Part shown: positions 1,784 to 14,251 of the stretch, in pieces
Layout of the letters: every line of letters begins with the position of its first letter
How positions within the stretch are numbered: the first letter of the stretch is position 1
Origin: a bacterium
Lineage (GTDB): Bacteria; UBP14; UBA6098; 4484-93
Reading direction: 5' to 3'
Length of the DNA: 64,000 nt
Assembly (NCBI GenBank): GCA_021158465.1
Contig: JAGGUN010000052.1
Coordinates: 2,160 to 66,159, forward strand
Made by a program: the position numbers and the translations under genes
Notes under the pieces: generated by a model
Seen by the model: the letters and a program-made list of their open reading frames with translations, nothing else
The model's database searches: none
What the model was told of the DNA's origin: nothing

Positions 1784-2596
1784 TTATCTTTTCACCCTGA
1801 CCCGAACAAAGTTTCTCGCGTCCTCACCCTCTATCATCAAAAAGCACTCATAAGAGGATGTCGTATCGGGCAACTCACCTTTCAGCTTGAGCTTGATGGT
1901 GCGCTTCTTCCCTGGTGCAATGGTAAGCTCCTTCGGCGAAACCTTGATGCAATCTACAGGAAGAGGCTTGAAACCGCTCGATATCTCGATGTGCACCCTG
2001 TCGGACTGGAGAGCAGGCTCCTTGAGGGTAAACGATATCCGCTGGCGGGTGGTGTCATTGTTGAAGAGAACAAACTCCCCCCTCCCACCATCTATGGTGA
2101 CAATGGACGGTAGAACAGCCAGTTCACCAAACGGAACGGAAGACATATTCTCCTTGCTTTCCGTCTCGATGAAATACAATGTAGCAATAGCCGTCTGAAA
2201 CATACTTCCCGTTATCTCCTTAACAATGAGCGATACAGCCCAGTGCTGGTTGTAGAACCGCTCATCATCAGGGATATCGATATACATCGCCGCTCTGGCA
2301 GGTTCACCTGGCGGCGCGACAAGTGTCTCAGGAGCATCGAGGACAAAAAATGAGGTATCAGGGATATCGATGTATCCCTTTAGCCAGTTCTTCTTAACCT
2401 TGGAGGGAAAAGCCTTTTCAACGACAAAACGCTTCTCGCTATCGCTATCGTTGTAGCAAAGGAGGTTCACACCAAAGTTCGTTTTCTCTCCCACAGGAAC
2501 ATTCCTCGCCGTGAAGACACCGGGTGAAATCCTTATGCAGAAAAGAGGAACTGCAAGAAACAACAGAACTATCGAAAATATAGCTTTCTTTATCAT
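1784..2596 (-). CDS. Secreted two-domain beta-rich protein, function unknown (last gene of protease operon)
   Basis: The track ORF 1784..2701 is trimmed to the internal ATG at 2596, giving the signal peptide MIKKAIFSIVLLFLAVPLFC. The body is beta-strand rich and ends VSPKELTIAPGKKRTIKLKLKGELP...FVRVRVKR, a PapD/ASH-like pattern. It is co-oriented 56 nt downstream of 2653..3216. Confidence 0.6.
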   Translation of the reverse strand: MIKKAIFSIVLLFLAVPLFCIRISPGVFTARNVPVGEKTNFGVNLLCYNDSDSEKRFVVEKAFPSKVKKNWLKGYIDIPDTSFFVLDAPETLVAPPGEPARAAMYIDIPDDERFYNQHWAVSLIVKEITGSMFQTAIATLYFIETESKENMSSVPFGELAVLPSIVTIDGGRGEFVLFNNDTTRQRISFTLKEPALQSDRVHIEISSGFKPLPVDCIKVSPKELTIAPGKKRTIKLKLKGELPDTTSSYECFLMIEGEDARNFVRVRVKR

Positions 2597-2652
2597 TTGG
2601 GCATCCTGTGGCAAAGGAGACAGTCGAGTAACGACTGTCTCCCTCTTCCATC

Positions 2653-3216
2653 TCAAGGCGAAGGTGTAGCGACAACGGTAACATCGATCTGGTGTACACA
2701 ACCATCACTAACAGAAGTCGGCACTGTGAAGCGGGTGTACAGATGGTGGTCTTCACCAGCTGGGACATCTGAGAGATAGACATCCCCAGGAGAAGAGGAG
2801 GCAGTTATAGTTTGCCAATCTGCTGTTGCCGGCTCTGCATCCTGAGTCCCTTTCCCGAGCTCGAGCTTGAAGATGTCAGCCCCTGCAGTTGTCCCAGCTG
2901 TCCAGAGGGTTGGAGTACCATATCCGCAGGGTGCAGGAGTCGTGGTCGCCTGATAGGCGGAGAAATCAACCTCACAGTTGCAGTTGTTGTCAACAAAGAT
3001 GTGGTCACCACTTGAGCCGGTTGTCTGGGTAATTACCTCTCCCTCTGCTCGCAGACCGAGTGGCCAGGTAGTGTAGTCTCCTGTTTCGTCCGCATTCCGC
3101 AGGGTGACATCCATATACTGCACCTGCACCGTGATGGTGAATGCATCGTTGTCAGCGGCATACACCACCGAACACAAGAGCAGAAGAACCGCTAACACCC
3201 CCCAAAAACTTCTCAT
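2653..3216 (-). CDS. Small secreted protein, paralog B of the protease C-terminal domain family
   Basis: There is an AGGAGG 7 nt upstream. The signal peptide is MRSFWGVLAVLLLLCSVVYA, followed by ADNDAFTITVQV. Blocks are shared with 3276..3797 and with aa 641-799 of the protease ORF. Confidence 0.7.
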   Translation of the reverse strand: MRSFWGVLAVLLLLCSVVYAADNDAFTITVQVQYMDVTLRNADETGDYTTWPLGLRAEGEVITQTTGSSGDHIFVDNNCNCEVDFSAYQATTTPAPCGYGTPTLWTAGTTAGADIFKLELGKGTQDAEPATADWQTITASSSPGDVYLSDVPAGEDHHLYTRFTVPTSVSDGCVHQIDVTVVATPSP

Positions 3217-3275
3217 TTATACCTCCTTTATTTAGGGTTAATTGTTAAAACTACAACATATCCTCATTCCACCAC

Positions 3276-3797
3276 CTAAGATGGTGTTACTGTCAAGGTT
3301 ACACTCAAGCGGTGAACAGTGCCGGGAGATGTTCTGCTTGGCGCAAGGAAACGGAAAACAAGATACACGCTCGAGCCAACCTCAAAAAAGTCTATAACCT
3401 CTACCGGCTCATCAAGGAGAACAATATAATCAGAGAAATCAGGAGGAAGCAGTATATAGCTTGTCGTTAGCTGAAGCACAAACCTCTCGATACCCTGAAC
3501 AACAGACGGCGTCCAGCGGGTTACCGATGTATCCTCTGTCACATCCTCGACAGATGCGAGAATGGACACAGGGATATTTGAGCCGTTCACAAAAAGCATA
3601 AAATCCGGTGGCTTCATTGCAACCGTATCCCAGACAAACGCCTCTATCCGCCAATCCCGGTAAGGAGCACCTTCTATGGTCTGACACTCAAACCCTACCA
3701 CTGGAACAGAAACAGTAATATTGAAATCATCTCCATCAGCGTAAAGCAACGATGCAAGAACGAGCATAAGAAGCAGTATGAGGGCAGCTCTCCTCAA
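3276..3797 (-). CDS. Small secreted protein, paralog A of the protease C-terminal domain family
   Basis: The TTG start overlaps the protease stop (TTGA, 3794-3797). The signal peptide is MRRAALILLLMLVLASLLYA, followed by ADGDDFNITVSV. The C-terminal strand is HRLSVTLTVTPS. Confidence 0.65.
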   Translation of the reverse strand: MRRAALILLLMLVLASLLYADGDDFNITVSVPVVGFECQTIEGAPYRDWRIEAFVWDTVAMKPPDFMLFVNGSNIPVSILASVEDVTEDTSVTRWTPSVVQGIERFVLQLTTSYILLPPDFSDYIVLLDEPVEVIDFFEVGSSVYLVFRFLAPSRTSPGTVHRLSVTLTVTPS

Positions 3798-6172
3798 TGT
3801 GGCACCGCCTGTATTGTTATCGTTATATCCTGTGGAGCAGGCACAGTATTTGTCGTTGGAGCCTGAAATAGAATGTAGAAATACTCCCCGGAGCCAGCAG
3901 GGATATTCACTCCATCACTTGCTCCTGCAAACTTGCCGGTAGCTCCTGTTCCTGCCGGTCGAAAATCTGTTCCCAAGGTATCATAGCTCGTAGAGAAGTC
4001 ATCAGCGCTTGGCACCGTTGGTCCATTGAATAATCCCATAAGAAGACACCTGTTAACACCAGGGGCATCGGAATAAGTCCAGGCAACAGGAGAAGCCTTT
4101 ATCTCCAGATCAATCGAGGCAGTCCCTGTATTCTTGACATAGGCTCTCGTTGAGGTATTAGCAATCCTCGTTTCACCAGTAGAAAGAAGCCCCATATCCC
4201 AGGGGGAAGTATTGTATATTACGCCTCCCGGACTGCCTTTGTGTATCTCTATCCCAACAGTTGCGGCGTTGTGCATCGTGAACTGTCCTGTTGCACTCCA
4301 GTCGGATCGCGCTCCGTGGTTGTCCCACATACGGATGCGCCAGTAGTATGTCGCACCATTCTGAGAGAGTGCGGTTCCACCATAGCTCACATCGGCGCAC
4401 CGGTCGCCACTGTGAACACCTGTCCCAGAGACATTATAATCTCCTGTATCCCACATAATCGTTCCCGCCCCGAAGCTCGGGTCGCTTGCAACCTGAATCT
4501 GAAGCCTATCCATATAGTCGCAGTTGTCGTCGTCGTGGTATATTGCGGAGAACTCAGGGGTAAGGTCGGTAACATCTGTCGGATTCGTCATCCCCTCGCA
4601 CAGAAGATTTGTCGGTGCTGTCGGCGTATAGTTGTTTATTGTCACCGAATGGGTCACCGTATCGCAGAAATTGTGGTCGCAGGCGATGAGCCGAACACTG
4701 TATGTCCCGGGGTCGTCGTAGGTGTGGCTCGGGCTCTGCGATGTCGATGTATGACCATCACCGAAGTTCCAGTTCCAGCTGGTGATGGAGAGGCAATGCT
4801 CCGTGCTATTGGTGAATGAGACCGGCTCGCAGACATACCTCGGTGAGTTGCTCGAGAATTTTGCATCGAGGTAATACTCATGATACAGAGCGTCGGTGCC
4901 GAAGCGGGAATTCCAATAGTTTGACTCACTGTAAGCAATTCTCATATAACCGCTCTCCCCCCAGTCGGTTCCCCAGCTATTCTTCATAATCCAGTAGCTG
5001 CCGGAATCGTTATATCCGACAAGGATTATCGCGTGCCAACCAGCCCAATAACCCCAGAGGCCGTGCGTATATACCCCTCCAGAGTAAGACCAGAAGTCGG
5101 GATAGTGGCATCTCATACAAACAGAGAGCGGGGAATGGTTAAGTCCATTTTTGAGAGCAGTTCGACTGACATTCTGCCCCTCATTTACCCACGTCCAGCC
5201 ACAGATTTTCTTTGTCCTATCCACCCAGTTGCTACACCTATCGCTGCACGGGAGTGTATGTGATACATCATCGTCATCACAATAACCCGATGAGTAATAA
5301 GGAAAACAAGCCTCGTCAGGTGTGCCGGTATCGCGGAGGAAATTGCTCGCAAGGTCAGTGTAGCCACCACAACAGCCATAATTGCTCTCATTACAGGAGA
5401 CAACAAACTGCTCGGAGAGGTCCATCGAGCTGCGGAGGGCAGGCTTATTAAGCCCTATCAATATCTGCGATTCCTCTGTGCCGACAACGGAGAACGCCCA
5501 GCAGGAGCCACAATCTCCCTGGTTCTTGATAGGGGTAACCCAGTTGTGACCATCCTTGTTCCGCCAATCAAGAGACGCCTTTGGCGGTGGAGCTCCTTCA
5601 AGGATATGCGGTCTGCCACGAACCTCATGAACCATTGCACCCGTTAAACGCAATCGCCTCTCATCATCCAGCATAAACGGGGCTGTCAGGTCTGCCGTCC
5701 ACTGCGCACCGGTCGCAATTATGTTTGCTCTTATCCTGCGAAGCTCGGCAAACCGCATAAACACAAACTTAACAAGCGAATCCGGAGGAGTATATCCTCC
5801 TTTTACCTTGAAATGTCGCTCCCCATTCTTTACCTCATAAGAGATTATGTTCCCTTCTACATGCCGAACGGTATCCTTGCCAGATATACCCTCAATGAAA
5901 ACGGCAAATCTATATTTACCCGGGGCTGGGAGATTTCTGTACAAACGGTCTCGCCCGATGAGAAGCTCACCCACTTTTATCTCATCAGGTGAGAAACGAG
6001 CAAGATACTCACCCTCGAGATAAACACACCCTATCGGATCGGAAAGAGAATAAGGAGTAAAACTTACACTAACAGAGTCAACCTCATCCAAAATGCCTAT
6101 CTCAGCATAGAGAAGACCAAAACAAAAGATAAACGAAGAAACTATAAAAGCAGAAAACCGATGCAGACGCAT
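3794..6172 (-). CDS. Secreted multidomain papain-like (C1A) cysteine peptidase with PKD-like, FN3-like and novel C-terminal domains
   Basis: The C1A catalytic blocks are NQGDCGSCWAFS (Cys), WHAIILVGYN (His) and MKNSWGTDWGESGY (Asn). The PKD-like block is WNWNFGDGHTS..HTYDDPGTYSVRL and the FN3-like block is PTNLLCEG...ATYYWRIRMWD. The signal peptide is MRLHRFSAFIVSSFIFCFGLLYA. I prefer ATG 6172 (GGGGAGGG upstream) over the track GTG at 6193. Confidence 0.85.
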   Translation of the reverse strand: MRLHRFSAFIVSSFIFCFGLLYAEIGILDEVDSVSVSFTPYSLSDPIGCVYLEGEYLARFSPDEIKVGELLIGRDRLYRNLPAPGKYRFAVFIEGISGKDTVRHVEGNIISYEVKNGERHFKVKGGYTPPDSLVKFVFMRFAELRRIRANIIATGAQWTADLTAPFMLDDERRLRLTGAMVHEVRGRPHILEGAPPPKASLDWRNKDGHNWVTPIKNQGDCGSCWAFSVVGTEESQILIGLNKPALRSSMDLSEQFVVSCNESNYGCCGGYTDLASNFLRDTGTPDEACFPYYSSGYCDDDDVSHTLPCSDRCSNWVDRTKKICGWTWVNEGQNVSRTALKNGLNHSPLSVCMRCHYPDFWSYSGGVYTHGLWGYWAGWHAIILVGYNDSGSYWIMKNSWGTDWGESGYMRIAYSESNYWNSRFGTDALYHEYYLDAKFSSNSPRYVCEPVSFTNSTEHCLSITSWNWNFGDGHTSTSQSPSHTYDDPGTYSVRLIACDHNFCDTVTHSVTINNYTPTAPTNLLCEGMTNPTDVTDLTPEFSAIYHDDDNCDYMDRLQIQVASDPSFGAGTIMWDTGDYNVSGTGVHSGDRCADVSYGGTALSQNGATYYWRIRMWDNHGARSDWSATGQFTMHNAATVGIEIHKGSPGGVIYNTSPWDMGLLSTGETRIANTSTRAYVKNTGTASIDLEIKASPVAWTYSDAPGVNRCLLMGLFNGPTVPSADDFSTSYDTLGTDFRPAGTGATGKFAGASDGVNIPAGSGEYFYILFQAPTTNTVPAPQDITITIQAVPH

Positions 6173-6223
6173 TACCCTCCCCAATCCACACACCGGTATA
6201 TCGGAGATATGCTTTCTAATAAC

Positions 6224-6331: not shown

Positions 6332-7027
6332 ATGAATAAATACCTCGTTCCTTTCGTGATCCTTCTCATTGCCTCTTCTGCATTCGCTCAGGAGCCCTGC
6401 ACCGATTCACTCTGGGCGGAGGTATCTGCTGATACAGTAACCATCCACCACGACGGGGCGTTCTACAACTGCTGTATGACTATCGAATACGAACTCCGTC
6501 AGCTTCCCGGGGATACGCTCATTGTGTCCGAGTTCGAGACAGGAACACCCTGCTTCTGTATGTGCTGCTTCAACCTGTTCTTGAAACTCGCAGGATTTCA
6601 GCCAGGGATACATTTCTTTCGCGTTATCAACAGGGATACAGGTGAGGTGTTCGGCACAGTCCCAGTGATCGTGCGAGGCGGAGAGAGCAAATCGGACATC
6701 CGGTTTGTCAGTTCATATCAGAGCGACTGTCTGCCGCTCTCCATCCAGGAACCAGAGAAGAAAGAACTGACCCCGTTTCTGTCCGTATCGCCCAATCCGT
6801 TCAACACAGAAGCAACAGTGACCGTCATGATACCCAACGAGGTAGAGTGTGTTGTGACAGTCAGCGACATCCTCGGGTATACAGTGGACACACTCTTCTC
6901 CGGCAAGGCATCAGAGGGTAAGCTCTCGTTCAACTGGCAAGCAGGTGGAAAACCGAGCGGCGTCTATTTTGTCAAAGTAAAGTATGGAGAACATTCACTG
7001 ACCAAGAAACTCATTTTGTTGAAGTAG
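6332..7027 (+). CDS. Small Cys-rich secreted protein with T9SS type-A C-terminal sorting domain
   Basis: The signal peptide is MNKYLVPFVILLIASSAFA. The N-domain has a C..NCC..PCFCMCC cysteine pattern. The C-terminal domain reads SVSPNPFNTEATVTV...SGVYFVKVKYGEHSLTKKLILLK. Confidence 0.8.
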   Translation: MNKYLVPFVILLIASSAFAQEPCTDSLWAEVSADTVTIHHDGAFYNCCMTIEYELRQLPGDTLIVSEFETGTPCFCMCCFNLFLKLAGFQPGIHFFRVINRDTGEVFGTVPVIVRGGESKSDIRFVSSYQSDCLPLSIQEPEKKELTPFLSVSPNPFNTEATVTVMIPNEVECVVTVSDILGYTVDTLFSGKASEGKLSFNWQAGGKPSGVYFVKVKYGEHSLTKKLILLK

Positions 7028-7284: not shown

Positions 7285-7357
7285 GTCCCCATCGTCCAGT
7301 GGTCTAGGACCCAGGCCTTTCACGCCTGAAACAGGGGTTCGACTCCCCTTGGGGACA
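7285..7357 (+). tRNA. tRNA-Glu(TTC)
   Basis: The acceptor is GTCCCCA/TGGGGAC and the anticodon stem-loop is CAGGC-CTTTCAC-GCCTG. The T arm is AGGGG-TTCGACT-CCCCT. Confidence 0.85.
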
Positions 7358-7378
7358 GAAAGCCCCGCAGGAAACAGG

Positions 7379-9076
7379 ATGAACAAACTAATCCAAACAG
7401 AAACGAAGGAAATATCTATATTATTGCTAATCCTTCTTGCCTTTGTCAGCACCTGCCACGCTGATACGACAGGGTATCATTTCCGGATAAGGTTTGCGAG
7501 CACATCCGACTGGGCGACTCTCGAATTTCTGGATGCCACTGCTCCTGTTGCCTTAGATATCGATGTTGTCGCTGACTCCTCTGAGGATGGGGCGAACATC
7601 GGTGTCTTCTACATAACACGCAGCGACACCGCACCTGTAATCGTCGATTATGACTGCTTCCTCTCGGCAATACCTGAGACGGGACTGGTTTTCAACTCAC
7701 AAAAAGGGGATTGGGGAAATGTTCATATTACATTCAGCAACCTGAACCCAGAGATGCCCCCCTATCCGAGTATGGAGTTTGAGAATAACGGAAGCATCCC
7801 CGATGACCCAACAAACCTGCGAACCTTTGTTGTCCCGCACGATTTTCTCACAGAGGGCGGACCGATTGTCCTACCTACTGATCCCTGGACCACATACAGG
7901 CTCATTCTCGCATTCTACTACCCGTGGTATGGCTCCCCATCCGGACCCACAGGATACTGGTGCCACTGGGACCCAGACAACCATTACGCCTCAACTCACG
8001 AGCCACTTCTCGGCTATTACGACTCTTACTCCCCAGAGGTGGTTTCACAGCATATCAGCTGGGCAAAGGAGTCCGGTATCGACGGTTTCATCTGCTCCTG
8101 GTGGGGACCTGGCAGTTTCACAGATGGCGCACTCGATGTCATCTTCTCGGTTGCGGATACATCCGACTTCCTCATCAGCTTTTACATAGAAACCTGCGGC
8201 ATCGAAACCCTTCCTGAGAGCGAGCGATTGCACCAATTCATACACCATTTCAATTACCTGCTTGCCAACTATCGGCTGCATCCTGCTATGTTTCGGATAG
8301 ATGGCGTTCCAACACTGTTCCTATACGGTTATCCGCTTTCACTTATGCCACTCGATAGCTGGGCTCTTTTGAGGGACAGCCTCGATTATGATGTTTACAT
8401 CATCGTGGACCGCTTGTCTCCGCTGGTGCTCGATCTCTTCGACGGCTACCACACTTACAATCCATGCAGGATACCGGCAGCGGAGCTGGCTGCAAAGTAT
8501 AACAGTGCCTCGCTTGCGGCTCGGTATCAGCACAAGCTCTTCGCTGCGACCATCCTTCCGGGATACTGCGACACCATTATTCGCGACCCAGGACTCACGG
8601 TTGACCGCGAGGATGGCGCATTCTATTCAAGCAGGTTCGAGATCGCCGCAGCATCCGAGCCGAACTTCATCCTGATAACCTCCTGGAACGAATGGCACGA
8701 AGGAACAGAAATTGAACCATCGGTTGAGTATTCTTACCAGTATCTCGACTCCACACGCAGCTTCCACGACCGCTGGGACATACCAGGAAGCATTGAACAA
8801 AAAGCTCCCGAAATGCCCACCTCTCCAGAAATTCACATCTACCCTAATCCGTTCAATTCCTCCTGTATCATCACCGTAGGGGACAGATGTATCCATCCTG
8901 CGACGGCTGAAATATACAACCTGCAGGGGAGATTGGTCGCCAAGGGTTCGCCACAGGCAGACACCTACAAAATAGTCTGGATACCAGATGAAAAGATATG
9001 CAGCGGGGTATATCTCATCAGGGTGCAGACAAAAGGCGGACGAACAACGACCAAAAAGGTAGTATACCTCAAATAA
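7379..9076 (+). CDS. Secreted GH99-like glycoside hydrolase domain protein with T9SS C-terminal sorting domain
   Basis: The track ORF start (TTG 7349) lies inside tRNA-Glu, so I use ATG 7379, giving MNKLIQTETKEISILLLILLAFVSTCHA. The GH99-like blocks are FYYPWYGSP, GIDGFICSWWG and ITSWNEWHEGTEIEPS. The C-terminal domain reads IYPNPFNSSCIITV...GVYLIRVQTKGGRTTTKKVVYLK. Confidence 0.65.
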   Translation: MNKLIQTETKEISILLLILLAFVSTCHADTTGYHFRIRFASTSDWATLEFLDATAPVALDIDVVADSSEDGANIGVFYITRSDTAPVIVDYDCFLSAIPETGLVFNSQKGDWGNVHITFSNLNPEMPPYPSMEFENNGSIPDDPTNLRTFVVPHDFLTEGGPIVLPTDPWTTYRLILAFYYPWYGSPSGPTGYWCHWDPDNHYASTHEPLLGYYDSYSPEVVSQHISWAKESGIDGFICSWWGPGSFTDGALDVIFSVADTSDFLISFYIETCGIETLPESERLHQFIHHFNYLLANYRLHPAMFRIDGVPTLFLYGYPLSLMPLDSWALLRDSLDYDVYIIVDRLSPLVLDLFDGYHTYNPCRIPAAELAAKYNSASLAARYQHKLFAATILPGYCDTIIRDPGLTVDREDGAFYSSRFEIAAASEPNFILITSWNEWHEGTEIEPSVEYSYQYLDSTRSFHDRWDIPGSIEQKAPEMPTSPEIHIYPNPFNSSCIITVGDRCIHPATAEIYNLQGRLVAKGSPQADTYKIVWIPDEKICSGVYLIRVQTKGGRTTTKKVVYLK

Positions 9077-9082
9077 GAAGAG

Positions 9083-9154
9083 CTGGGGAGCAGGGATTCG
9101 AACCCCGATTGGCGGATCCAGAGTCCGCTGTCTTACCAATTGGACGACTCCCCA
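9083..9154 (-). tRNA. tRNA-Gln(CTG)
   Basis: On the reverse complement the acceptor is TGGGGAG/CTCCCCA (U1-A72). The anticodon stem-loop is GCGGA-CTCTGGA-TCCGC and the T arm is CGGGG-TTCGAAT-CCCTG. Confidence 0.85.
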
Positions 9155-9167
9155 CTACTCGGACTAC

Positions 9168-11286: not shown

Positions 11287-11744
11287 GTATAAGGTCCACC
11301 CTGCAGAAGCTCAAGATGAAACAGCTTGCCTCCATCGAAGAGGAGAATAAGCTATTCTCAGCCAGCAAGATCCCTGTAAAGCGAATACTCGTAGGAACGA
11401 ACTCATCCAACGGAGAAGAAAAACTCAAGCTCCTATTGCCAAGGTTAAAAGGGAAAAAAGTGGTCAAGCTCAGCACGGAAGGAGACGGGATAGTCATTAC
11501 CAAGAAGGATGTTAATATATTTAATGTCCCAAGGAAACGAATATTAGAGAGGATAAGGTCGGAGAGGTTCGAGCTGTTCATCGACCTATGCGATAACTTC
11601 TTCTTTCCTGTAGCATCCGCTCCCGTCGTCTGTCGGATACCGTATCGGGTCTCGTTCTCTAACAATGTCCCGAAACCGTATGCAAACATTATACTTCCAC
11701 CATTACCTGCAGGAATAGACTACCTGCTAAGGATCTTTTCCTGA
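11283..11744 (+). CDS. Hypothetical protein
   Basis: This 153-aa ORF overlaps the glyA stop by 4 nt and sits upstream of the GT2 gene. I recognise no motif. Confidence 0.5.
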
Positions 11745-11756
11745 AGAAGAGGAGAT

Positions 11757-12674
11757 ATGCTCGTATCGATAGTTGTGCCAGCCTACAACGAACGAGAGAA
11801 TATCCCGGAGTTTGTCCGTCTGTGCGACAAGATGATAAAAAACGCCCCATTTGATGGAGAACTTATAATTGTCGATGACGGAAGCACCGATGGGACAGGA
11901 GAGGTCTCAGAGAAATCCGCCAAGGAATACAGCTTTGTCCGCGTGTTCCACCACACAAGAAACAGAGGGCTAACAGCCGCCTTGGAAACAGGTTTCTCTG
12001 AGGCAAAGGGTGAAATACTCATCTTCTTTCCAGCAGACCTACAATACCTTCCAGAGGAGATACCCCGTATGATCGAGACAATGGAGAGGGAAAAACTCGA
12101 CATTGTCTGCGGCTGGAAAGAAGGGCGATATAAGAAAAGGCTCGTCTCATCGGTTTACAACTATCTCGTCAGAAAATTCTTCGACATAGAAATCCACGAT
12201 ATGAACTCTGTGAAAGCGTTTCGCAGGGAAGTCGTCGAGGCTATACCGTTCCGCAAGGATTGGCACCGGTATGTCATCCCGTTCGCAGCAGATGCAGGGT
12301 TCCGCATCGGAGAGGTAAGGGTCAAGCTGCACGAGAGACATTGGGGAGAAAGCAAGTTCAAAGGACCATCAAGGGTCATTATCGGCGTTCTGGACCTGCT
12401 CGCTGTCAAGTTCCAGATTACATTTATGAAAAGACCGATGATATTCTTTGGAACAATCGGGATGATCCTGCTACTTCTTGGATTCATGGCTGGCATCGCT
12501 GCTGTTGTCCTGAGGTTCGGATACGGCATAGGCTACAGACCGCTCCTGTACCTTATAATGCTCCTCGTCCTATCTGGAATGCTACTGTTCATCGTTGGGT
12601 TCCTATCAGAAGCAATCGCAGGGGTCAACAGCAGACTATCCTCCATCGAAAAGAGACTCAAGAAAAAGGAATGA
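11757..12674 (+). CDS. GT2-family polyprenol-phosphate glycosyltransferase (DPM1/GtrB-like) with two C-terminal TM helices
   Basis: The GT2 blocks are VSIVVPAYNEREN, IIVDDGSTDGT and FPADLQY. The C-terminal hydrophobic pair is IFFGTIGMILLLLGF...LLYLIMLLVLSGMLLFIVGF. Confidence 0.85.
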   Translation: MLVSIVVPAYNERENIPEFVRLCDKMIKNAPFDGELIIVDDGSTDGTGEVSEKSAKEYSFVRVFHHTRNRGLTAALETGFSEAKGEILIFFPADLQYLPEEIPRMIETMEREKLDIVCGWKEGRYKKRLVSSVYNYLVRKFFDIEIHDMNSVKAFRREVVEAIPFRKDWHRYVIPFAADAGFRIGEVRVKLHERHWGESKFKGPSRVIIGVLDLLAVKFQITFMKRPMIFFGTIGMILLLLGFMAGIAAVVLRFGYGIGYRPLLYLIMLLVLSGMLLFIVGFLSEAIAGVNSRLSSIEKRLKKKE

Positions 12675-13561
12675 AGCTTATAAAGAAAGCCTTCCCCTGG
12701 ATATTCGGTGCAGGGGTGATATTCTTCCTCACACGATACCTCATTGACAACTGGCAGGAGGTTTCCGCTCAGAATTTTGAGCTTAACTGGGGGTATCTTA
12801 TACCATCACTCCTGCTACTCTTATTCCTCTTCTTCTACCAAACAGTTATCTGGAGACACCTGCTTGTCTCTCTGGGAGAAAAGATAAGCATTTCCGAGGC
12901 GTATAGAATTTTTAACATATCGAACCTCGGGAGATACATTCCGGGAAAGGTGTGGCAGATACTGGGGATAATGTATCTCGCGGACAGAAAGAAGCTCTCC
13001 AAATCGAGGGTTGGAACGACCATCGTCTTTGCGATAGTTCTGCTGATATTCGCCGGGTTTATTGTAGCGTTACCATCTGTTGGGCAGGTAAATATCGGGA
13101 GGGTTTCTCTCGCGTATTTCTGGTTTGCTGTCCCTGTGATACTTTTCTTTATTTTCTCACCAAGGAGTCTCGTTGCTGTTTTGAACTACATACTGGCAAG
13201 GTTCAAACGGGGCAAGCTGCGGTATTATCCGAGCTGGAAGCAGAACTTGCTTCTCCTTCTCCTTTATATCTCATACTGGGCAATATATGGTGTCTCTTTT
13301 TATCTTTTCATCCTTTCATTCGGTCAGAACATAAGGTTTGTCGATGTGGTCGGCGTATATCCTGCCGCTTACATCGTCGGATATATAGCCCTTTTCACTC
13401 CCGGTGGACTGGGAGTACGCGAGGGCGTGGTGACGGCTCTGCTCTCGCCGTATCTTCCGTTACCTATTGCAACACTCATAGGGCTTACATCACGGCTATG
13501 GTTCACAGCAGCAGAGATAATATCCGCGTCCGTTGCACTGCTTCTGGGGGTGAAGAAGTAG
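12671..13561 (+). CDS. Lysylphosphatidylglycerol-synthase-TM-like (UPF0104, flippase-like) membrane protein
   Basis: ATG 12671 forms an ATGA overlap with the GT2 stop. The protein is polytopic with the block NISNLGRYIPGKVWQILG...FTPGGLGVREG. The upstream part of track ORF 12260.. overlaps GT2 in another frame and was discarded. Confidence 0.75.
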   Translation: MKLIKKAFPWIFGAGVIFFLTRYLIDNWQEVSAQNFELNWGYLIPSLLLLLFLFFYQTVIWRHLLVSLGEKISISEAYRIFNISNLGRYIPGKVWQILGIMYLADRKKLSKSRVGTTIVFAIVLLIFAGFIVALPSVGQVNIGRVSLAYFWFAVPVILFFIFSPRSLVAVLNYILARFKRGKLRYYPSWKQNLLLLLLYISYWAIYGVSFYLFILSFGQNIRFVDVVGVYPAAYIVGYIALFTPGGLGVREGVVTALLSPYLPLPIATLIGLTSRLWFTAAEIISASVALLLGVKK

Positions 13562-13564
13562 CTG

Positions 13565-14251
13565 TTACTTTATCCTTCCCACGGGCATTATATAAAGCGG
13601 CTCCTCATCCTCCGGGAGGTTCATAATCTGTTTCACCTCATCGTCGAAGAAGGCACCAACAGCCACCGTCCCGAGATTCAGTGAGACAGCCTGCAAATAG
13701 AGATTCTCGGCTGCGTGACCGACCTCTATATGCACATATCTTATGCCTCTTTTCCCATACTTTCTCGTCGTTCGCTCATAGACGGCGGAGAAAACGATAG
13801 CAGCCGAACATCTCCTCACACATTCCTGCCCGAGAGCAGCAGCCGACAACTCGTCTCGTTTATCACCATCCACAATTCTTGTGAGATTGTGCTTATATGG
13901 GCTATATTTGTAGATTCCTGCAGGGATGTCGGTAACATTTCCTGCGACAAGATACAGTTCGAGCGGGTAGAGCGCTCCTGCCGATGGCGCCGTTCTGAAC
14001 CCTCTTTTGTCCGTGATGCCCTGAGCAGCCCAGAGTAGTTGCGAAACATCAGAAAGTTTCAACGGCTCATCCCTGTATTCTCTTATCGACCTTCTGGTGG
14101 ATAAAGCCTCCTCGACCGAGGTATCACCTGTCAATCTCGGCTCAGGAAGCTCTATTACCAGCCCAGGGTCACCATCAGCTCCCATAACTGTAAGAACAGT
14201 TAGGATTAATATTCCTATGTAAGCTATGCCTGCCGCAAGAAAACCTCTCAT
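13565..14251 (-). CDS. SagB/ThcOx-type nitroreductase-fold dehydrogenase with N-terminal membrane anchor or signal
   Basis: The protein reads TRRSIREYRDEPL...LLWAAQGIT...RTAPSAGALYPLELY. The N-terminal hydrophobic segment is GIAYIGILILTVLTVMG. Confidence 0.7.
   Translation of the reverse strand: MRGFLAAGIAYIGILILTVLTVMGADGDPGLVIELPEPRLTGDTSVEEALSTRRSIREYRDEPLKLSDVSQLLWAAQGITDKRGFRTAPSAGALYPLELYLVAGNVTDIPAGIYKYSPYKHNLTRIVDGDKRDELSAAALGQECVRRCSAAIVFSAVYERTTRKYGKRGIRYVHIEVGHAAENLYLQAVSLNLGTVAVGAFFDDEVKQIMNLPEDEEPLYIMPVGRIK

Follow-up and report, generated by a model that had tools for sequence, protein, structure and literature searches.

A 64,000-nt stretch of a Zixibacteria genome (positions 2,160 to 66,159 of contig JAGGUN010000052.1, here called the window) carries four adjacent minus-strand genes, A, B, C, and D, which encode a secreted papain-like protease, two small secreted proteins, and a two-domain partner. 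The C-terminal domain of the protease, referred to below as X, recurs in both small proteins. From sequence comparisons and structure predictions, we lean towards the view that the operon specifies a secreted donor-strand-type assembly that tethers the enzyme to a pilus-like fiber or a surface complex. The four genes are as follows.

3794 to 6172, minus strand: gene A, 792 amino acids (aa) from an internal ATG; secreted C1 protease with a C-terminal X domain.
3276 to 3797, minus strand: gene B, 173 aa, TTG start; stand-alone X protein.
2653 to 3216, minus strand: gene C, 187 aa; stand-alone X protein, the proposed major subunit.
1784 to 2596, minus strand: gene D, 270 aa from ATG; two homologous PapD/ASH-like immunoglobulin (Ig)-like domains, the proposed chaperone or X-interacting partner.

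The first-pass annotation of the window had claimed that the terminal domain of A is homologous to both small proteins, and both BLASTP and a hidden Markov model (HMM) place the three in one family. B and C are 28% identical over 180 aa (E = 9e-14), and C matches the C terminus of A with 23% identity over 141 aa (E = 4e-6); the comparison of B with A is marginal when taken alone (E = 0.087). The X HMM, built from C and 96 stand-alone family members, matched C (1e-54, with C part of the model), B (2.5e-36), and the C terminus of A (1.4e-22), and had no further match anywhere in the 64-kb window. Judged by these alignments, the paralogy of the A tail, B, and C is beyond chance.

Word-indexed homolog searches proved too narrow, returning 7 proteins for C, 2 for D, and 5 for the D alignment. 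The X family came to light when 1.84 billion representative proteins were searched exhaustively with a profile, which yielded 524 clusters (at 50% identity) at E ≤ 1e-3, 114 of them at 1e-10. Among the best-scoring 150 representatives, 96 are stand-alone proteins of 150 to 200 aa whose entire length, signal peptide included, is covered by the match, and 51 are long proteins (244 to 4889 aa), where no more than 4 residues follow X. The match in the long proteins mostly starts at the first core strand, just past the position of the N-terminal motif described below and immediately behind the final strand of the domain that precedes X. Pfam scans of 90 X proteins gave no consistent family, and no Pfam or NCBIfam family was reported for B, C, or D at reporting thresholds. 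X is therefore a sizeable family without annotation that occurs in two forms, as a small secreted protein and as the C-terminal domain of large proteins. The C-like clade, made up of C and its closest relatives (P0003 to P0005), shares two conserved cysteines (...CG.GT... and ...SDGC.H...); their conservation suggests a disulfide and hence an oxidizing, periplasmic or extracellular, location.

The feature that carries the donor-strand reading is found at the mature N terminus of the small proteins. In stand-alone X proteins, signal-peptide cleavage is followed immediately by a strand with the consensus D-[TDS]-F-x-I-T-[VI]-T-V, in which hydrophobic residues alternate and which leads straight into the first X core strand, x-Y-[IL]-x-[IV]-x-L-[KR]. 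The mature N termini of B and C had been described as near-identical; the motif (ADNDAFTITVQV / DGDDFNITVSV in the small proteins) is conserved across stand-alone X proteins and is missing from A. Residues 24 to 32 of C form the most conserved 9-residue window of the X family, above the C-terminal strand and the F-x-A-P motif. The two strands in the operon are listed here.

3699 to 3737, minus strand: mature N-terminal strand of B, DGDDFNITVSVPV, a proposed donor strand.
3118 to 3156, minus strand: mature N-terminal strand of C, ADNDAFTITVQVQ, holding residues 24 to 32; predicted local distance difference test (pLDDT) score below 50 in the monomer model.

A motif filter requiring a signal peptide followed by the strand motif was applied to 332 open reading frames (ORFs) from 22 loci, controls included. 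It gave 18 matches: 12 X proteins, 2 unrelated false positives, and 4 proteins in which the N-terminal strand is present without an X core. These strand-only proteins lie inside four X/D operons. They end in a tail resembling that of type IX secretion system (T9SS) cargo in loci L001 and L032 and in a dockerin in L004, and the one in L011 carries cadherin and FG-GAP domains. Three classes of protein can be distinguished: acceptor-only (A), donor plus acceptor (B and C), and donor-only, in which the strand precedes unrelated domains. This logic matches the tip, rod, and terminator or anchor of chaperone-usher pili, and strand donation in trans is difficult to avoid in accounting for it.

Structure prediction points in the same direction. 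The AlphaFold2 model of C, based on a 9-sequence alignment, had a mean pLDDT of 79.6 and a predicted template modeling (pTM) score of 0.72. Residues 18 to 33, comprising the end of the signal peptide and the N-terminal strand, had pLDDT below 50 and no secondary structure, and the strand region is the sole long segment under 50. The true donor strand of TLP-1 fibrils is likewise left disordered by AlphaFold (PMC11494351). When the C model was compared with PDB structures using Foldseek, the top match was the Pyrobaculum bundling pilin AbpA (7ueg; E = 7.8e-4; template modeling (TM) score, 0.35), and approximately 25 of the top 50 matches were donor-strand pilins, including TLP-1a/b, the Saci_0406 thread, PapA, FimA, CfaB, FimF/G/I, and Caf1; the others were mostly beta-sandwich domains of GH123 enzymes. 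The unplaced strand and the share of donor-strand pilins, about half of the top 50, favor strand exchange, which the first-pass annotation had offered as one option.

Some of the related loci were found with a small D alignment and a hand-made degenerate DNA pattern, half of whose 16 matches were due to chance. The gene set had been expected to co-occur in related genomes, and it does: in each of the 11 independent loci for which sufficient DNA was available, a D homolog adjoins an X gene. X/D loci span at least four phyla (Zixibacteria, Firestonebacteria, Lentisphaerota, and Planctomycetia). Their layouts, several of them in metagenome-assembled genomes (MAGs), are given below.

L002, a relative with approximately 85 to 87% identity: the A-B-C-D order is repeated.
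L003 and L009, from a different genus (X 52 to 57% and D 32 to 35% identical): big protein, B-like protein, C-like protein, D.
L009, 5015 to 8842: the big protein, an S8 subtilase whose tip X domain is 58% identical to that of A.
L004: C25 gingipain-like protease ending in X (351 to 2771), 162-aa X protein, D, 454-aa dockerin protein.
L001 (Firestonebacteria MAG) and L032: large protein with TIG or DUF2341 and a terminal X, then D, X, half-D, strand protein with a tail like a T9SS C-terminal domain (CTD).
L001, 4023 to 5417 (464 aa), and L032, 6730 to 8625 (631 aa): the strand-only proteins with the T9SS-CTD-like tail.
L001, 5423 to 6850: PorV-like barrel, present in L001 and not common to the L032 layout.
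L011 (Lentisphaerota MAG): ice-binding-like protein ending in X, X, two D genes, 667-aa strand protein.
L010 (Planctomycetia MAG): D, X, X.
L025 to L027 (three metagenome contigs): LexA-like gene, X, X, D, and no neighboring cargo gene.

This synteny bears on the possibility that the four genes are coincidental neighbors, encoding generic Ig-like secreted proteins that do not act together. Ig-like folds are indeed promiscuous, and D has sub-threshold Pfam matches to fn3_5, FixG_C, and Cep192. Yet X and D remain adjacent in all 11 loci, which come from several phyla and have 25 to 35% protein identity, and the start-stop overlap in the operon and the family-specific motifs point to joint function, which makes mere coincidence scarcely credible.

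Several of these loci have further features. In L011, the Ice_binding-like passenger occurs twice, once before a C-terminal X (7951 to 9165) and once behind an N-terminal donor-type strand, NATITVTV (11732 to 13735). The D-X-X cluster of L010 (3473 to 9000) directly follows genes for flagellin, FliD, and a Maf-type flagellin glycosyltransferase. A LexA-type repressor gene (helix-turn-helix plus Peptidase_S24) lies directly upstream of X-X-D in L025 (10158 to 10775), L026 (3750 to 4412), and L027 (323 to 1012), the L025 copy having been identified by Pfam and the other two by similar sequence; stress- or SOS-linked control of X-X-D is a possibility.

The passengers to which X is attached are diverse. 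By Pfam, they include Peptidase_S8, C25, C1, right-handed beta-helix/NosD, ice-binding-like, TIG, DUF2341, and SBBP beta-propeller domains. Of the cargo that could be identified, proteases are the most frequent: the window has C1, L004 and P0055 have C25, and S8 occurs in L009 as well as in representatives of the family. This prevalence could be taken to mean that the small X proteins serve A specifically as a protease, whether as its inhibitors, as chaperones of the pro-domain kind, or as its substrates. However, the cargo proteases belong to three unrelated catalytic classes, the X, X, D kit also accompanies beta-helix, SBBP beta-propeller, ice-binding-like, DUF2341, and TIG cargo, and in L025 to L027 it is found without a large cargo gene nearby. 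In addition, the signal peptides are of the signal-peptidase-I type and lack the lipobox of type V pilins. With cargo this diverse, we rejected B and C as protease-specific accessories, a role that we consider very improbable. The protease is interchangeable cargo and not the core of the system, contrary to the protease-centered reading of the first-pass annotation, since S8 or C25 proteases or non-proteases take the place of C1 in other loci. The interchangeable cargo and the missing lipobox also remove the support for the analogy, drawn there, with maturation of type V pilins. TLP-IPT glycofibrils were considered as relatives of the TIG-containing cluster proteins and rejected, as they appear to be eukaryotic and unrelated.

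The partner protein D consists of two beta-sandwich domains.

2153 to 2536, minus strand: N-terminal Ig domain of D, aa ~21 to 148; elsewhere also found alone as a protein of 150 to 180 aa.
1787 to 2125, minus strand: C-terminal Ig domain of D, aa ~158 to 270.
L001, 3371 to 3913, and L032, 8622 to 9077: single-domain half-D genes.

The two domains are homologous to each other (hhalign probability, 98.5%; E = 3e-15), and D therefore appears to have arisen by internal tandem duplication. Arg265 is near-invariant in the D family. No similarity between X and D was detected by hhalign. The D model, built from 5 sequences, had pLDDT of 68.6 and pTM of 0.44, and the two beta-sandwich domains were clear. 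Its PDB matches were ASH/PapD-like domains, including those of hydin-type ciliary proteins and the CEP192 SPD-2 domain. Across both domains, D matched the chaperones FimC, CsuC, and YadV as well as WxLIP (E = 4e-7 to 3e-6), all ranking below ASH-domain proteins, and it also matched RbmA across both. The model and the PDB matches support the description of D as a two-domain PapD/ASH-like protein. The first-pass annotation would have abandoned its claim of a joint assembly had the domains fallen into a common promiscuous fold or had the genes not co-occurred; D does fall into the ASH/PapD-like class, and we judged the strict synteny to outweigh this.

The WxLIP matches lead to the main alternative to a fiber, a static surface complex like that of WxL proteins, in which X would be an envelope anchor, a strand of D would complete the X sandwich and stay bound, and the small X proteins would be accessory anchors. 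WxLIP consists of DUF916 and DUF3324 and is predicted to contribute a strand that completes the WxL beta-sandwich (PMC10599100). The three-part gene architecture of the X/D loci, with small domain-only proteins, a large protein with the domain at its C terminus, and a two-Ig partner, matches that of Gram-positive WxL clusters, including their typical 2:1 composition (PMC10599100). The WxLIP structures 9i25 and 9i1y are among the best two-domain matches of D (TMq, 0.33 to 0.35). At the profile level, D weakly resembles DUF916: both of its domains align with the DUF916 of WxLIP at 72 to 82% hhalign probability (E about 1e-5), while 20 column shuffles gave no more than 0.5%. A sub-threshold Pfam match to WxLIP_PGBD was seen in 3 of 10 D homologs, and the one-domain half-D proteins of L001 and L032 have a counterpart in E. 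faecium locus B.

The likeness does not extend to the other parts of a WxL cluster. X as a WxL relative was rejected, given 0.2% hhalign probability against 14 WxL domains, and the Pfam WxL domain (PF13731) had no match in A, B, C, or 90 family members. D is a duplicated single domain type without similarity to DUF3324 (hhalign, 0.2 to 0.3%) and does not have the C-terminal membrane helix of WxLIP; no D alignment ends in a hydrophobic helix. X/D loci contain no LPXTG protein, and their hosts are probably diderm. Last, the most conserved block of the family, the N-terminal strand, is confined to stand-alone and strand-only proteins, which a static complex leaves unexplained. Overall, we regard a WxL-like static complex as unlikely. 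The small WxL proteins retrieved in L013 to L019 (Firmicutes plasmids) mostly have a signal peptide, a short strand (for example, G-[IL]-VEF-[TI]-P), a long proline/aspartate-rich linker, and then the domain. Most of them thus differ from X proteins, which have no proline-rich linker after the N-terminal strand; as a sequence layout, strand plus linker would itself suit strand donation.

The organization of the operon provides information on the expected proportions of its products. All four ORFs were confirmed, as were the co-orientation and spacing described earlier: the A stop and the B TTG start overlap as TTGA, and gaps of 59 and 56 nt separate B from C and C from D. The overlap suggests that translation of A and B is coupled. 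Each protein has a signal peptide of the signal-peptidase-I type, as had been proposed, with cleavage (marked by a slash) read as ...GLLYA/EIG in A, ...SLLYA/DGDDF in B, ...SVVYA/ADNDAF in C, and ...VPLFC/IRISPG in D; the reads of A, B, and C agree with the LLYA or VVYA endings noted before. An RNA hairpin was predicted between C and D.

2613 to 2645, minus strand: hairpin with a 14-bp perfect stem, −29.8 kcal/mol, z −5.1.

At the same position in L002 the hairpin is kept, the stem letters differ, and a U-run is added. As read from the sequence, the hairpin is a probable attenuator or partial terminator inside the operon; attenuation here would leave X subunits outnumbering D. A scan for sigma-70 promoters and terminators gave nothing useful on the minus strand. 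On the 3′ side of D lies an unrelated gene for a GH57 branching enzyme that runs off the start of the window. The SHMT encoded in the window shares a 90%-identity cluster with a protein from candidate division Zixibacteria bacterium 4484_93.

The domain order assigned to A in the first-pass annotation, a C1A peptidase followed by PKD-like, FN3-like, and ~155-aa terminal domains, was reproduced by Pfam for the first three.

4919 to 5578, minus strand: Peptidase_C1 (papain-like) domain of A, aa 199 to 418 (Pfam PF00112, E = 5e-45).
4637 to 4825, minus strand: PKD domain of A, aa 450 to 512 (Pfam PKD_4, E = 1e-15).
4274 to 4615, minus strand: FN3-like Ig_Rha78A_N domain of A, aa 520 to 633 (Pfam, E = 1.2e-14).
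3797 to 4264, minus strand: X domain of A, aa ~637 to 792; reaches the C terminus of the protein and has no N-terminal donor-type strand.

A qualifies as a papain-like (C1A) peptidase by its Peptidase_C1 domain and its Gln-Cys-His-Asn catalytic residues, and the motifs QGDCGSCW, GWHAI, and KNSWG are intact in the translation. Pfam found no match within the N-terminal ~194 aa or the C-terminal ~155 aa, and the I29 pro-domain was not detected by Pfam. The region ahead of the C1 domain (residues 1 to ~194; 5590 to 6172, minus strand) is beta-rich by eye. At the other end of the protein, the X core begins right after the last FN3-like strand (GQFTM/ATVGIEIHKG) and shares 58 to 70% identity with its tip counterparts in L009 and L003.

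Components and cargo of T9SS recur near X/D clusters. Two cargo genes adjoin the operon in the window, divergent from it.

6332 to 7027, plus strand: T9SS cargo gene, 231 aa, Por_Secre_tail.
7349 to 9076, plus strand: T9SS cargo gene, 575 aa, GH99/GH71-like, Por_Secre_tail.

Both hold the same position in the same-species contigs L005 to L008. A 2009-aa SprA/Sov (T9SS translocon) gene is located in L025 (16 to 6045, minus strand), about 5 kb from X-X-D. Together with the PorV-like barrel of L001 and the CTD-like tails of L001 and L032, it hints at a link with T9SS. X could then be a C-terminal sorting or secretion signal for outer-membrane export, possibly T9SS-linked, with the small X proteins and D serving as parts of the route or as decoys. 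Like the tail of T9SS cargo, X is a beta-sandwich domain at the extreme C terminus of large secreted hydrolases, and the neighbors listed above, the window cargo genes included, fit such a role. Against it, X as a known T9SS CTD was rejected, as the type A models TIGR04183/PF18962, the type C model NF033708, and CHU_C (PF13585) are absent from A to D; that the four lack such a domain although the genome uses T9SS was previously noted, and the two plus-strand neighbors do have one. X also stands alone and, at ~155 aa, has roughly double the length of a T9SS CTD (the Por_Secre_tail model covers ~75). Furthermore, the X family extends to Planctomycetia and Lentisphaerota MAGs, and T9SS is not known from either lineage. 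A sorting tag would not readily account for two separate secreted proteins that are strongly conserved and have an N-terminal strand of their own, and we find this role improbable.

Under the donor-strand reading that we favor, assembly could proceed as follows. After Sec export, D would bind and cap X subunits, like pilus chaperones or WxLIP. The N-terminal strand of one X subunit would then insert into the X core of the previous subunit, the strand of B completing the core of A. A, an acceptor and not a donor, would sit at one end, its PKD and FN3-like domains forming a stalk that carries the C1 protease outward. B, translationally coupled to A, would act as the adaptor, and C would be the repeating subunit, polymerizing onto B by strand exchange. 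The hairpin after gene C would keep D substoichiometric; the A/B overlap and this hairpin fit a 1:1 tip and adaptor, an excess of subunit, and a scarce chaperone. In other lineages, strand-only proteins with a T9SS-type tail or a dockerin could anchor the opposite end. The result would be a fiber or short stalk holding the C1 protease away from the cell.

Among known systems, X/D comes closest in its working to chaperone-usher pili and in its gene layout to WxL clusters, and it is a member of neither. As in the type 1, P, Csu, and archaic CupE pili, the subunits are ~160 to 190 aa long and have an N-terminal extension with alternating hydrophobic residues. The tip protein is in two parts, with an N-terminal functional domain and a C-terminal pilin-type domain without its own extension, and the periplasmic partner has two PapD-like Ig domains. 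At the fold level only, X matches pilins and D matches FimC and CsuC. A hairpin similar to that between C and D follows the major-subunit gene of the pap operon. Arg8 and Lys112 in the chaperone cleft hold the C-terminal carboxylate of the subunit, and by analogy the position of X at the extreme C terminus would fit such binding. In contrast to chaperone-usher pili, no usher was seen in the X/D loci inspected, D lacks PapD_N and PapD_C, and Pfam matched X to neither fimbrial nor SCPU families; the proposed X/D tip carries enzymes rather than lectins, and the hosts belong to Zixibacteria, Firestonebacteria, Lentisphaerota, and Planctomycetia, whereas the best-studied chaperone-usher hosts are Proteobacteria.

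X/D also resembles the donor-strand fibers that include TasA, AbpA, Sulfolobus threads, TLP-1a/b, and the Pam pili of candidate phyla radiation (CPR) bacteria. AbpA is the best match of C, TLP-1a/b and Saci_0406 are among the top ten, and the disordered N-terminal strand in the C model has its parallel in TLP-1. Operons for Pam pili include chaperone-like Ig proteins and no classical usher (bioRxiv 10.64898/2026.03.03.709456), as do X/D loci. The recent description of Pam pili and the TLP-1 fibrils show that donor-strand pili continue to yield new families. The NCBIfam Pam models did not match B, C, or D, and A had a chance-level PamR match via its PKD domain. Peptidase_M73 (TasA) and FimA-type Pfam families had no match in A to D or in the scanned X members; no SipW-like gene stood out among the listed ORFs, in which no targeted search for one was made. 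Type V pili (Bacteroidota FimA/Mfa), whose pilins have a lipoprotein signal peptide with a lipobox Cys and are activated by an Arg/Lys-specific protease, were rejected as an analogy, as B and C have A-x-A-type cleavage and no lipobox. A C-terminal pilin-type tag on many enzymes was not reported in the literature examined for TasA, AbpA, threads, TLP-1, and Pam, and no description of the X/D kit was found in the literature. The gene set had not been recognized as a named system, and this stands: it lacks PapD and usher signatures as well as WxL and DUF3324 domains and a membrane helix, and by the sequence features examined it does not belong to the TasA family, T9SS cargo, or type V pili either.

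Several observations weigh against a donor-strand fiber. No usher-like or consistent outer-membrane gene was found in the gene tables and ORF lists of L001 to L011, L025 to L027, and L032, where flanking ORFs were partly scanned with Pfam; the large neighbors scanned were SprA, kinases, flagellar proteins, and others. PapD_N (PF00345) and PapD_C (PF02753) gave no Pfam match at E ≤ 5 in D and nine homologs, and no solved structure, pilins and chaperones included, was retrieved when X and D profiles were run against PDB sequences (for X, at E ≤ 10). TM scores of C to pilins are only 0.3 to 0.4, and GH123 beta-sandwich domains score similarly. The D model is mediocre and its best matches are generic ciliary ASH domains, which leaves its interpretation as a chaperone nonspecific. 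The domain preceding X has, in some long proteins, a last strand (DESDxxFTIEA) that is similar to the motif and could complete the X core of its own protein. Finally, the physical interface among the operon proteins is one that we infer.

Beyond the operon in the window, we tentatively suggest, as a possibility that may well not hold, that X/D represents an unrecognized class of usher-less donor-strand pili among environmental diderm phyla, with a tip socket for interchangeable enzymes and a base possibly formed by strand-only proteins. The tip would accept papain-, gingipain-, and subtilisin-type proteases as well as beta-helix and ice-binding-like proteins, making the pilus an extracellular enzyme scaffold. 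If this is true, X/D would be a new branch of donor-strand-assembled surface filaments, beside TasA, archaeal bundling pili and threads, TLP-1, and CPR Pam pili, a group that has expanded rapidly, and, to our knowledge, the first donor-strand system in which hydrolytic enzymes are generally tagged at the C terminus with a pilin-type domain. Such a system would pose the question of how a chaperone-type, usher-less system is exported in probably diderm bacteria, including what role T9SS may have. A function would be assigned to a family of more than 500 clusters and its obligatory partner in the little-studied Zixibacteria, Firestonebacteria, Lentisphaerota, and Planctomycetia, and the X/D kit may link the logic of chaperone-usher pili with Gram-positive WxL/WxLIP clusters.

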